From assembly GCA_003663445.1 (NCBI GenBank), contig QMZZ01000001.1:1-29562 (forward strand): a DNA stretch of 29,562 nucleotides, written 5' to 3'. A model generated the notes under the pieces. It was not told where the DNA came from, did no database searches, and saw only the letters and a list, made by a program, of their open reading frames with translations. Position 1 is the first letter of the stretch, and each line of letters begins with the position of its first letter. Shown here in pieces: positions 2,188 to 6,974 of the stretch. The stretch is from Candidatus Aenigmatarchaeota archaeon (GTDB taxonomy: Archaea; Aenigmatarchaeota; Aenigmatarchaeia; QMZP01). The position numbers and the translations under genes were made by a program.

Positions 2188-2264
2188 ATATATTTTTATA
2201 CTCTGGGGTATTTAAATCTTTACAGAGAGAGCGATCAAAAAAATGAAAGGAGGGTAAAAAGGGA

Positions 2265-2783
2265 ATGCCTGTTTCCACGAAGTTCACCCTCGAGCAGGCA
2301 CGGGCCCTTGAGGAAAAGCTCAAGGAAGAGCTGATCCGAAGGGCAATCGAGCAGAAAGTGATCACCTCGAGGGAAGAAGCGGTGATCAGGGACATAATCC
2401 CTGACGTCGATCTCGGGGCAACCAGAAACGTCTGGGAGCAGACCCTCGCAACCGCAGACGCCTACAACGACGTCTACAGTGTAACCCTTCCAGACAAGAA
2501 GGTCATCGGGTTCTACGGCTTCAAGACAAAGGCCTCGACCCCCGTGGTCACAGCGGTAAAGTTTGCCCTGGGTACCGGCGGGGCAAAGGTCAAGGACATC
2601 TGGCAGGTTGAGACGGCACACACCGAGCTCAACGCAGAGGCAAGGGCAATAGTGCCCATCATCTACAACAAGTCCGAGACAGTAACGATCAGCATGTACA
2701 ACTCAGGGTCAGCAGGTGCGACTGACAACGTGATTCTCCTCGGGTTCGTGGTCGAGCCGAAGGGTGAGCTCGTAACGCAGTAG
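2265..2783 (+). CDS. Candidate major capsid protein 1 (single jelly-roll) with N-terminal helical arm
   Basis: First gene of the structural operon, RBS GGAGGG. About 40-aa amphipathic helix followed by alternating beta-strand pattern, ending LLGFVVEPKG. The fold is inferred. Confidence 0.55.
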   Translation: MPVSTKFTLEQARALEEKLKEELIRRAIEQKVITSREEAVIRDIIPDVDLGATRNVWEQTLATADAYNDVYSVTLPDKKVIGFYGFKTKASTPVVTAVKFALGTGGAKVKDIWQVETAHTELNAEARAIVPIIYNKSETVTISMYNSGSAGATDNVILLGFVVEPKGELVTQ

Positions 2784-2793
2784 GAGGGTTTGA

Positions 2794-2886
2794 ATGCCAA
2801 GGAAAAAGAAGGAAGGGGAGCAAGACAGACCGACTTCCCCGATAGGGGTAGTCAATAGACTCAAGCTAAAAAAGTTAAGGAGGTAA
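2794..2886 (+). CDS. Basic 30-aa microprotein
   Basis: MPRKKKEGEQDRPTSPIGVVNRLKLKKLRR; RBS GGAGGG upstream; fills the gap between the two capsid candidates. Confidence 0.55.
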   Translation: MPRKKKEGEQDRPTSPIGVVNRLKLKKLRR

Positions 2887-2889
2887 AAA

Positions 2890-3387
2890 ATGGGCTACAT
2901 CCACAAGGTAGACCTGGAACCGGTAGCTCTGCCTGGAGAGAACATAGTGATCCTGCCGGACAACAAGCCCTTCAGGGTCGCCTGGATTGAGCCCCTGCCC
3001 GCGATAGACAAGGACTTCGGCAGCCTCGCGGCCGGGGCCGAGACCGGGGACACGGAGGTCACGGACGTCTACACAGACGAGAACCAGCTCGTTCAGTTCA
3101 GGATAATACCCCTGGACGACGTCGAGGTCACGGTCAAGCAGCCGAGAGCCAAGGGAAGGTGGGTCACCAAGGTGGTTCAGGCAAAGCTCATAAAGGACAA
3201 CCCCCACGACAACCTCGCGGAGATGTTCCAGTTCGAGGACCGGGGCCTGTTCTTCAACGTGAAGAACCCGACCAGCTACACCCTTCCGGCCTCGAGGGTC
3301 AGGCTCGTCGGGTTCAGGTTCGTTCTCGAGCCGCTCTCCGAGATGCCGGAGAAAAAGACCTACGTGGTCGTGGGAGGAAACGAATAG
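2890..3387 (+). CDS. Candidate major capsid protein 2 (single jelly-roll)
   Basis: 165 aa, beta-strand-rich, RBS GGAGGT, similar in size to 2265..2783, ends RVRLVGFRFVLEP. Confidence 0.5.
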   Translation: MGYIHKVDLEPVALPGENIVILPDNKPFRVAWIEPLPAIDKDFGSLAAGAETGDTEVTDVYTDENQLVQFRIIPLDDVEVTVKQPRAKGRWVTKVVQAKLIKDNPHDNLAEMFQFEDRGLFFNVKNPTSYTLPASRVRLVGFRFVLEPLSEMPEKKTYVVVGGNE

Positions 3388-3399
3388 GAGGTGTGAGAA

Positions 3400-3720
3400 A
3401 TGGTCAGGAAAGGTGGTAATGCCTCGATAACCGCCGCCGACACCGACACCACGATCTACTCGGTGACTTCAGGAAGGGCCTTCGAGCCCAGTGTGATAAT
3501 AATAACGAACAACTCCGGCGCGACGGCGAGGGTCAGGATATGGGACGGTGCCTCCGCGACCGGAACCAAGTGGCTTGACGTGATGGTTGCCAACGGGGAG
3601 ACCGTCCAGCTCAACAACATAGAGGGAATGAGGTTCTACACCTCTGTGACGGCTCAGTCGGACAACGCCGGGGCAGAGCCCGCTCACGTCTGGGTCTTCG
3701 TCGGCGGGGAAGAGGAGTGA
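3400..3720 (+). CDS. Small beta-sandwich virion protein (penton/vertex-like)
   Basis: 106 aa, T/S/G/A/V-rich all-beta pattern (IIITNNSG..ARVRIWDG); RBS GGAGGTG. Confidence 0.55.
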   Translation: MVRKGGNASITAADTDTTIYSVTSGRAFEPSVIIITNNSGATARVRIWDGASATGTKWLDVMVANGETVQLNNIEGMRFYTSVTAQSDNAGAEPAHVWVFVGGEEE

Positions 3721-3764: not shown

Positions 3765-3866
3765 ATGGAAGAAAAAATGGAAGTCCTGGCCAGGAAGGGC
3801 GACAAGGAGCTCAGGGGCTACATTAAGTGCAACTACGGGAAGGTGAGGGTTGAGATAAAAGAATGA
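3765..3866 (+). CDS. Hypothetical 33-aa protein
   Basis: MEEKMEVLARKGDKELRGYIKCNYGKVRVEIKE; ATGA overlap with 3863; codon usage matches neighbours. Confidence 0.4.
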   Translation: MEEKMEVLARKGDKELRGYIKCNYGKVRVEIKE

Positions 3867-5848: not shown

Positions 5849-6060
5849 AGTACAGGGTGGAGAAGCTCGAGGACATCTACCAGCTCCTCAAGCCGGACCC
5901 AGACGGAGGATGGTTCAGGCAGGGGAGGAAGTACACCTGGAAGGGCCTTTTGAACAGGGCAGAAACCGCGGGGATGCAGGGGGACGAGCTCGAGAGGGGC
6001 TTCGGGCTGACCGACGAGGAGTGGGAGGCCGTTCTGGAGAGGTACGAGAGATTTAAATAA
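5845..6060 (+). CDS. Hypothetical helical protein (71 aa)
   Basis: ATGA overlap; start re-called at MKYRVEKLE. Confidence 0.6.
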   Translation: MKYRVEKLEDIYQLLKPDPDGGWFRQGRKYTWKGLLNRAETAGMQGDELERGFGLTDEEWEAVLERYERFK

Positions 6061-6077
6061 AAAGCCCAATTCTTAAT

Positions 6078-6974
6078 ATGGCTGTGTGGAGTGATGACTT
6101 CAGCGAGGATACGAGCCAGAACTACGCAATCCTGTGGAGAAATGTGACCGGCGGGCGCGGTTATGGAAACCCACCCGAATCCACAAGCATTACAGTTTCC
6201 GATGGATATTTGACAGCAGAAATTACGAACAGTGGCTACTGCAAGGGAATAGTTTACCTCAAGGCCAAGCCAACGGTAAATCCGCTGACAGAAAACTTTG
6301 TAATAGAGGTCAGGGGAAGGTCTCATGGTTGGGACGGGTTCGCGTCTGGCATAACCCTTGCGGTGGACAGGGTTCCAGAAGGAAGCGGAAATTTTGAAAA
6401 GTTTATAAGATTCGTTTACTCCACCTACCCGTCTCCGGATAGGATAGAGCTTCAAACCCATCAGAGAACCCTGGTAAGCATGGACTCTGATGTAGACACG
6501 GAAAAGACTATGTGCACCTTCGGGCCATGGAACAAATTTAGGATAGAGAAGGATGGCACCTGGTGGAAATTTTTTTTCAACGACAATCTTATCTGGGAGG
6601 GTGAAATTCCGGAAGCGGATGAGGAGATGTACATAGGCTTCACTGTGGATGTGACTTCAGGCGAATCCGGATGGACGGCAATAAACACTTACGATGATTA
6701 CTACTTCGCTCTTTATCCGTTTGGAGAAATAACCAACATCTCATCACCAAGCTCCGCCCACGCTGGGGATTCTCTGAGTGTTAGTGTAGATGTGAAAAAC
6801 ACCGGCTCGGATGGCACTATTTGGTGCAGGCTGGTGGACACCTACGACGACTCGGAGATAGGCATAAGACAGGAATCGTACCTTGCTTCCGAGGAAATAA
6901 AAACATTTTCTTGGGTTATAACCATGCCTAACAGGGACTTGACAGTTAGAGTCGAGGCAGGTCACGAGGAGTAG
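6078..6974 (+). CDS. ConA/LamG-like beta-sandwich plus C-terminal CARDB/Ig-like domain; putative adhesin
   Basis: N-terminal DDFS...FVIEVRGR...WNKFRIEKDG...IGF pattern. The C-terminal ~85 aa are closely similar to 9697..10011. Leaderless promoter. Confidence 0.6.
   Translation: MAVWSDDFSEDTSQNYAILWRNVTGGRGYGNPPESTSITVSDGYLTAEITNSGYCKGIVYLKAKPTVNPLTENFVIEVRGRSHGWDGFASGITLAVDRVPEGSGNFEKFIRFVYSTYPSPDRIELQTHQRTLVSMDSDVDTEKTMCTFGPWNKFRIEKDGTWWKFFFNDNLIWEGEIPEADEEMYIGFTVDVTSGESGWTAINTYDDYYFALYPFGEITNISSPSSAHAGDSLSVSVDVKNTGSDGTIWCRLVDTYDDSEIGIRQESYLASEEIKTFSWVITMPNRDLTVRVEAGHEE

Follow-up and report, generated by a model that had tools for sequence, protein, structure and literature searches.

The 29.5-kb contig QMZZ01000001.1 (29,562 nt, the whole of which is referred to here as the window) carries two neighbouring genes of similar size, here called gene A and gene B, separated by a short open reading frame (ORF), the micro-ORF. 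Do these two genes encode the shell of a virus, what kind of shell would that be, and is the micro-ORF a gene in its own right? We propose, with moderate confidence in the reading as a whole, that the window is the complete contig of an uncultured archaeal virus and that positions 2265-3720 open its virion module. The virus would have a shell like that of Sulfolobus polyhedral virus 1 (SPV1), with gene A encoding the major capsid protein, gene B probably encoding the vertex protein, and the micro-ORF being a by-product that is not conserved.

The gene A product is predicted to resemble the capsid protein of SPV1

The gene A product was modelled from a 133-sequence alignment with a predicted local distance difference test score (pLDDT) of 96.2 and a predicted template modelling score (pTM) of 0.90. 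The model has a helix at residues 9-29 followed by a jelly roll of 8-10 strands. The gene B product, modelled from 21 sequences (pLDDT 85.2), is a beta sandwich of the jelly-roll type. An earlier note on this DNA had described both proteins as beta-rich capsid candidates, and both do model as jelly rolls, so that models of another fold, which that note had named as a refutation, were not obtained; the description "beta-rich" suits gene B, while gene A has a 21-residue N-terminal helix ahead of its beta domain.

Structure comparison of the gene A model recovered single-jelly-roll capsid proteins of archaeal viruses. The best match was SPV1, whose VP4 the earlier note had named for comparison, followed by the small capsid proteins of SH1, HCIV-1 and HHIV-2. 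A Foldseek search with the same model placed SPV1, SH1 and HCIV-1 all in its top six. The SPV1 capsid chain (6oj0) aligned over the helix and the entire barrel and scored 2.3 Z above all pilus- or fibre-like, nucleoplasmin-like and lectin matches. Two different 178-residue chains of 6oj0 yielded an identical alignment to gene A. The asymmetric unit of SPV1 contains 42 copies of VP4 and one of VP10 in a T=43 shell (PMC8459092), and since two chains match, the matched protein would be VP4.

This resemblance does not extend to sequence. The 133-sequence gene A profile detected no SPV1 chain among PDB sequences even at E <=10, and PDB sequence searches with the gene A and gene B profiles returned nothing meaningful. 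Pfam matched none of the 133 gene A family members, tblastn of gene A against a set of GenBank phage records that lacks SPV1 gave one chance match only, and a fold search of BFVD returned only generic jelly rolls with low template modelling scores.

We propose from the model that gene A encodes the major capsid protein of an SPV1 VP4-like shell, in which it would build hexameric capsomers as SPV1 VP4 does. Gene B is probably the vertex (penton) protein, analogous to SPV1 VP10, and its one copy per genome would supply the five-fold vertices. We assign the roles in this way because gene A is promoter-proximal, belongs to a large family, appears to be transcribed separately in relatives and multiplies, while gene B remains single. 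The likeness of gene B to VP10 (a jelly-roll sandwich, single copy, syntenic with gene A) is one of context rather than of comparison with a VP10 structure.

The window has no recognisable packaging motor

In SPV1, hexamers of the jelly-roll protein VP4 and pentamers of VP10 form a shell around a nucleoprotein core, and there is no packaging ATPase (PMC8459092). We searched 30 ORF translations of the window against Pfam and 20 of these against PHROGs. Most had no match, including genes A, B and C and the four downstream same-strand genes of the structural module, apart from a sub-threshold CARDB/lectin-like match of a 298-aa protein. These searches gave no match to a terminase, portal or HK97 protein among the window ORFs, nor to an FtsK/HerA ATPase, a polymerase or an integrase, and the sole Walker-A-like string of the window falls in an 87-codon frame. 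The lack of matches to a packaging ATPase or to terminase, portal and HK97 proteins is one reason to favour an SPV1-like shell. By analogy with SPV1, DNA would probably be compacted by basic proteins and become enclosed as the particle assembles, with no need of a packaging motor. The recognisable genes encode an N6/N4 DNA methyltransferase, a NosD/beta-helix spike-like protein, a CARDB/lectin-like protein, a GT2 glycosyltransferase, a trypsin-like protease and a helix-turn-helix protein; the spike-like, CARDB/lectin-like and glycosyltransferase genes are compatible with a virion module.

The predicted VP4-type single-jelly-roll fold of gene A and the lack of packaging ATPase, polymerase and integrase matches are both features of the Portogloboviridae. 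That family is also marked by a nucleoprotein core of VP1 type holding A-form DNA, and by an internal membrane. The likeness of the window to SPV1 lies in fold, absence of a motor and accessory genes. There are also differences: the window is 29.5 kb long, compared with a circular genome of ~20 kb in SPV1; SPV1 is a virus of Sulfolobales, whereas the window was binned with a small archaeal metagenome-assembled genome (MAG) and a Candidatus Aenigmatarchaeota MAG contains one of the relatives; and many relatives have duplicated or fused copies of the capsid gene, a situation undescribed for SPV1. To our knowledge, SPV1 and SPV2 are the sole described viruses that combine a single-jelly-roll shell protein with no packaging motor. 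With a capsid protein of SPV1-like predicted structure leading a large metagenomic family, that architecture would reach beyond Sulfolobales.

Gene A is repeatedly duplicated and fused in related loci

A word-indexed search found four homologs of gene A and none of gene B, and the contigs of these four already share the conserved block. Scanning metagenomes and genomes with the gene B profile added 12 further loci, among them L017, a 2.7-kb contig that belongs to a Candidatus Aenigmatarchaeota MAG. A scan of IMG/VR with the same profile gave no relatives. An exhaustive search with the gene A profile recovered 546 cluster representatives (50% identity) at E <=0.001, 251 of them at <=1e-10. Genes A and B are syntenic in ~17 distinct related loci, with A upstream of a single B, usually followed by gene C, even in distant loci. 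The closest two relatives are 52% identical to the window in gene A and 39-46% in gene B.

We counted the domains at all fetched loci with profiles of genes A, B and C. There are one to four gene A domains per locus and always one copy of gene B. The window, L011-L013, L015, L022, L024 and L025 have one gene A copy, and L001, L003, L004 and L016 have two tandem paralogs. A fused two-barrel gene A occurs alone in L029, with one extra copy in L021 and L027 (in L027 a partial A ORF at the contig edge, 5' of the fused gene) and with two extra copies in L019. Each fused ORF runs through the assembled DNA without a break. The fused two-barrel proteins P0018, P0022, P0036, P0053 and P0125 are 331-426 aa long.

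In a quick maximum-likelihood tree of gene A, the two halves of P0018 fall in two separate clades, A1 (support 98) and A2 (95). By comparison, the halves of P0022 and P0053 (99 each) and of P0036 (93) are sisters, and the halves of P0125 cluster with the extra L019 copies (97). On this tree, duplication and fusion would have occurred several times. The placements suggest that one A1-A2 fusion arose through loss of a stop codon and that several duplications were independent. The window gene A clusters with the single-copy genes of L024 and L025, outside both clades. In L016 the A1-A2 pair lies ~4.8 kb from gene B (L016:107-6505), which is itself split into ORFs at 5998-6159 and 6194-6505, and the structural block of this locus may be disrupted.

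SPV1 has been proposed to represent the state before capsid-gene duplication in the SH1/P23-77 lineage (PMC8812541). Family members with one to four barrels, some of them fused, would be natural material for studying how capsomers evolve through duplication and fusion, and we regard this family-wide pattern as the more interesting lead from this locus. We tentatively suggest that gene A is the marker of a large group of archaeal viruses that are SPV1-like, lack a motor and are so far uncatalogued (546 clusters without a Pfam or PHROG entry, which may include viruses of DPANN archaea), whose capsid gene was repeatedly duplicated in tandem and then fused, with at least four duplications that look independent and P0018 joining A1 and A2. 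We found no description of the gene A family in the searchable literature. The jelly-roll families in a recent preprint on the Thermococcales virome are different ones, which have ATPases or double-jelly-roll proteins, and none matches the window gene set by description. Genes A and B provide two profile-ready hallmark genes with which to find viruses overlooked by present catalogues.

The spacer between genes A and B varies between relatives

In at least seven distinct relatives, gene A (or the genes A) ends in an oligo-T tract and a separate TTTAAATA-type box precedes gene B, an arrangement to be expected if gene A is transcribed apart from gene B. The spacer holds a terminator and a promoter in L001, L004, L006, L015, L017 and L025, and a hairpin in L024. 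An unrelated gene for a 118-aa beta-protein occupies it in L011-L013, and a gene for a 54-aa zinc ribbon in L003 and L008. The two closest relatives have spacers of 66 nt and 113 nt with no ORF of >=8 codons inside. In contrast to relatives with a terminator and a separate gene B promoter, genes A and B of the window would be co-transcribed.

Three further observations concern these spacers. The 54-aa four-cysteine zinc-ribbon gene is intact in L008 (1048-1212) and has a stop after codon 39 in L003 (8691-8862), and a 53-aa homolog of its product is encoded elsewhere in L001 (12159-12320). In L001 (11116-11200) and L003 (8855-8945), the A terminator is separated from the B promoter by a conserved stem-loop of ~70 nt, with arms resembling GTCCAAGCTGGC and GCCAGCTTGGGTCC. 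Many relatives have a purine-rich leader resembling TAGATAGATAGAG(A)GGTG directly 5' of the gene B start (Table 1), although gene B is otherwise 35-48% identical to that of the window; this leader may be a conserved translation or transcript-start element.

The micro-ORF is probably not a conserved gene

The earlier note had reported that the micro-ORF has its own ribosome-binding site and 11 lysine or arginine residues among its 30 codons, which direct reading confirmed, and had suggested that it encodes a high-copy DNA-neutralising or cementing peptide. As a conserved peptide this is unsupported. The micro-ORF has no counterpart in any related A-B spacer examined, including those of the two closest relatives, an absence that the earlier note had itself named as a refutation. 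At -0.32 per codon, its codon log-likelihood falls below every one of 375 in-frame 29-codon windows taken from the neighbouring genes (mean 0.47, standard deviation 0.21). Its GC content at third codon positions is 0.57, compared with 0.74-0.86 in five of the six neighbouring genes. Two of its three leucine codons are TTA and CTA, which together make up one of the 79 leucine codons in the neighbouring genes. The spacer has a GC content of 44% and is 72% purine, which accounts for the richness in lysine and arginine, and the last five codons of the micro-ORF are the ribosome-binding site of gene B. In an ENA contig that is identical over the 5.8 kb compared, the public gene call has genes A, B and C but not the micro-ORF.

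The micro-ORF is therefore probably not a conserved gene. Most likely it would be a lineage-specific by-product of a purine-rich, AT-richer spacer, and at most it might carry ribosomes from gene A to gene B. It should not be annotated as a structural peptide on sequence alone. We considered two other explanations of the spacer and rejected both. RNA structure is not supported, as the spacer has a folding z-score of -1.5 and 15 of 200 shuffles fold equally well. The micro-ORF could also have been a vestige of a deleted A2 paralog, given its ATGCC start at the position where A2 starts in relatives, but the tree places the window gene A outside both A1 (98) and A2 (95).

Alternative readings of the shell and of the micro-ORF

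The earlier note had offered two models for genes A and B: a pair of vertical single-jelly-roll major capsid proteins like those of Halopanivirales, or the two halves of a split double jelly roll. Halopanivirales (SH1, HCIV-1, HHIV-2 and P23-77; formerly Helvetiavirae) have two vertical single-jelly-roll capsid proteins and an FtsK-HerA ATPase. Under the first model, A and B would be co-equal partners in hetero-hexamers, as are SH1 VP4/VP7 and P23-77 VP16/VP17. The matches of gene A to Halopanivirales capsid proteins are as this model would have it, but that of SPV1 is clearly better. Unlike in Halopanivirales, the window has one gene A, gene B is not its paralog (the two profiles are unrelated, with an hhalign probability of 0.3%) and no FtsK-HerA (A32-like) ATPase was found in the window. 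In relatives only gene A duplicates and fuses with itself, while gene B stays single, often with its own promoter past a terminator. We consider hetero-hexamers unlikely. The split double jelly roll finds no support in the models, each of which forms a single barrel that is complete by itself. The matches listed for either include no double-jelly-roll capsid protein, although a missing match is no proof of absence. The precedent cited for it was also inaccurate, as the double-jelly-roll capsid protein of ANME-1 chaacviruses is intact and encoded in two variants, not as two halves (PMC9894754). What the proposed virus would share with PRD1, STIV and the chaacviruses, as read here from its genes, is a tailless virion with a jelly-roll shell protein and a single-jelly-roll vertex protein, and some relatives of gene A parallel the double jelly roll as covalent two-barrel proteins. 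A tailed virus, to which "Uroviricota" labels on ESM Atlas clusters would point, was rejected because neither the window nor any recovered related locus, contigs of 20-30 kb included, has a terminase, portal or HK97 protein. Jelly rolls also occur outside capsids, and A and B could instead be Ena-type pilus- or fibre-like subunits, nucleoplasmin-like DNA chaperones or lectins, all of which are represented among the lower-scoring matches of gene A. This is highly improbable given the lead of the SPV1 chain over all such matches across helix and full barrel. In addition, there is no other capsid candidate on a virus-like contig with spike and membrane-protein genes, gene A is the first, promoter-proximal gene, and the A-B pair is kept in every related locus recovered.

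Several observations nevertheless weigh against an SPV1-like shell with a by-product micro-ORF. No specific structural match was found for gene B, and its fold search of the ESM Atlas was generic. An ATG with a Shine-Dalgarno-like word and at least 25 open codons arises in only 0.7% of spacer shuffles, so that a chance micro-ORF is unlikely in any single spacer, if unremarkable over a large scan. Its well-placed GGAGG and ATG replicate the genuine layout of the B-to-C junction, and a score based on synonymous codons only is ambiguous (it ranks in the lowest 5.6% of coding windows and in the top 6.6% under a uniform null). For these three reasons translation of the micro-ORF is possible, and because the closest relatives are only ~52% identical in gene A, a young gene would escape detection. 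A genuine small basic protein confined to this lineage, such as a high-copy DNA-binding or cementing peptide, would agree with the rarity in shuffles, with the GGAGG 6 nt before the ATG as at the starts of genes B and C, and with the coding appearance of other tiny ORFs such as 3765-3866, which has normal codon usage. We judge it quite improbable, however, in light of the absence from every related locus, the closest included, the codon score under all in-frame windows with its rare leucine codons, the origin of the basic residues in a purine-rich spacer, the final codons that are merely the ribosome-binding site of gene B, and the omission by the public gene caller. The micro-ORF might instead be translated purely as a bridge, ribosomes that finish gene A restarting 10 nt on and stopping 3 nt before the gene B ATG, which would couple B to A through a functionless peptide. 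The gene A stop, the GGAGG and the micro-ORF ATG all fall inside 13 nt, the micro-ORF ends in a TAA (2884-2886) placed between the GGAGG and the ATG of gene B, the window spacer has no terminator or promoter, unlike those of relatives, and poor codon usage and non-conservation are expected of a bridge ORF. Gene B has a strong ribosome-binding site of its own, though, which makes coupling unneeded, and a bridge is pure inference without experimental precedent in this group; we consider it somewhat unlikely. The reading of the micro-ORF as a by-product is the one retained here.

The contig and its possible host

The contig was binned with a 0.57-Mb, 71%-complete archaeal MAG, whose GC content is 46.7% compared with 50.8% for the window. 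A genome size of 0.57 Mb is typical of DPANN archaea. Together with the relative L017 from a Candidatus Aenigmatarchaeota MAG, this hints that the host may be a DPANN archaeon, although the binning of a viral contig is weak evidence. The MAG showed neither a CRISPR array nor a spacer that would link it to a host, and gene A occurs once in the window and in the MAG assembly. The window contains no tRNA genes, and the 29.5-kb contig has no terminal direct repeat.

Organisation of the virion module

The earlier note had placed genes A and B, each with a ribosome-binding site, at the head of a structural operon. Both ORFs lie where it put them, each preceded by GGAGG, and together with the next same-strand genes they form the first block past the divergent methyltransferase gene. 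The ATTTAAAT box upstream of gene A is a candidate promoter of this operon, and similar TTTAAATA boxes (repeat family D8) are found 5' of other window genes. The B-to-C junction (3385-3402) has the same TAGGAGG-spacer-ATG layout as the junction of gene A and the micro-ORF.

Table 1. Features of the virion module and of related loci (window coordinates unless a locus is named).
Feature	Position	Strand	Description
Gene A	2265-2783	+	172 aa; N-terminal helix and single jelly roll; proposed major capsid protein
Gene B	2890-3387	+	165 aa; beta sandwich of jelly-roll type; proposed minor capsid protein (vertex/penton)
Gene C	3400-3720	+	106 aa; beta-rich; conserved partner immediately 3' of gene B
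Micro-ORF	2794-2886	+	30 codons, 11 lysine/arginine (6 lysine, 5 arginine); unconserved, coding status doubtful
ATTTAAAT box	2210-2217	+	48 nt 5' of gene A start; candidate archaeal promoter (TATA box/B recognition element, BRE) of the structural operon
GGAGG, gene A ribosome-binding site	2249-2253	+	11 nt 5' of the ATG at 2265
GGAGG before the micro-ORF	2783-2787	+	Overlaps the gene A stop TAG; micro-ORF ATG 6 nt on
GGAGG, gene B ribosome-binding site	2879-2883	+	6 nt 5' of the ATG at 2890; within the final codons of the micro-ORF
Fused or multi-copy gene A loci	L019:717-3226; L021:12-1770; L027:3-1466; L029:4192-5283
TAGATAGATAGAG(A)GGTG-like leader	L001:11215-11239; L004:5582-5605; L006:400-421; L007:1570-1598; L017:505-527; L024:6560-6582

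Homologs of gene C lie 3' of gene B in L001, L003, L004, L009, L017, L024, L025 and L029. The ESM Atlas model of gene C has a pTM of 0.80, and its neighbours there are viral clusters without a name. At 2243-2257, overlapping the gene A ribosome-binding site, is a four-codon mini-ORF (ATG AAA GGA GGG TAA). A 33-codon ORF (3765-3866) separates gene C from the gene for a 152-aa protein; it is present in the public gene call and has codon scores of 0.50 and 0.40, typical of structural genes. Unlike the 30-codon micro-ORF, it is probably a real small gene.
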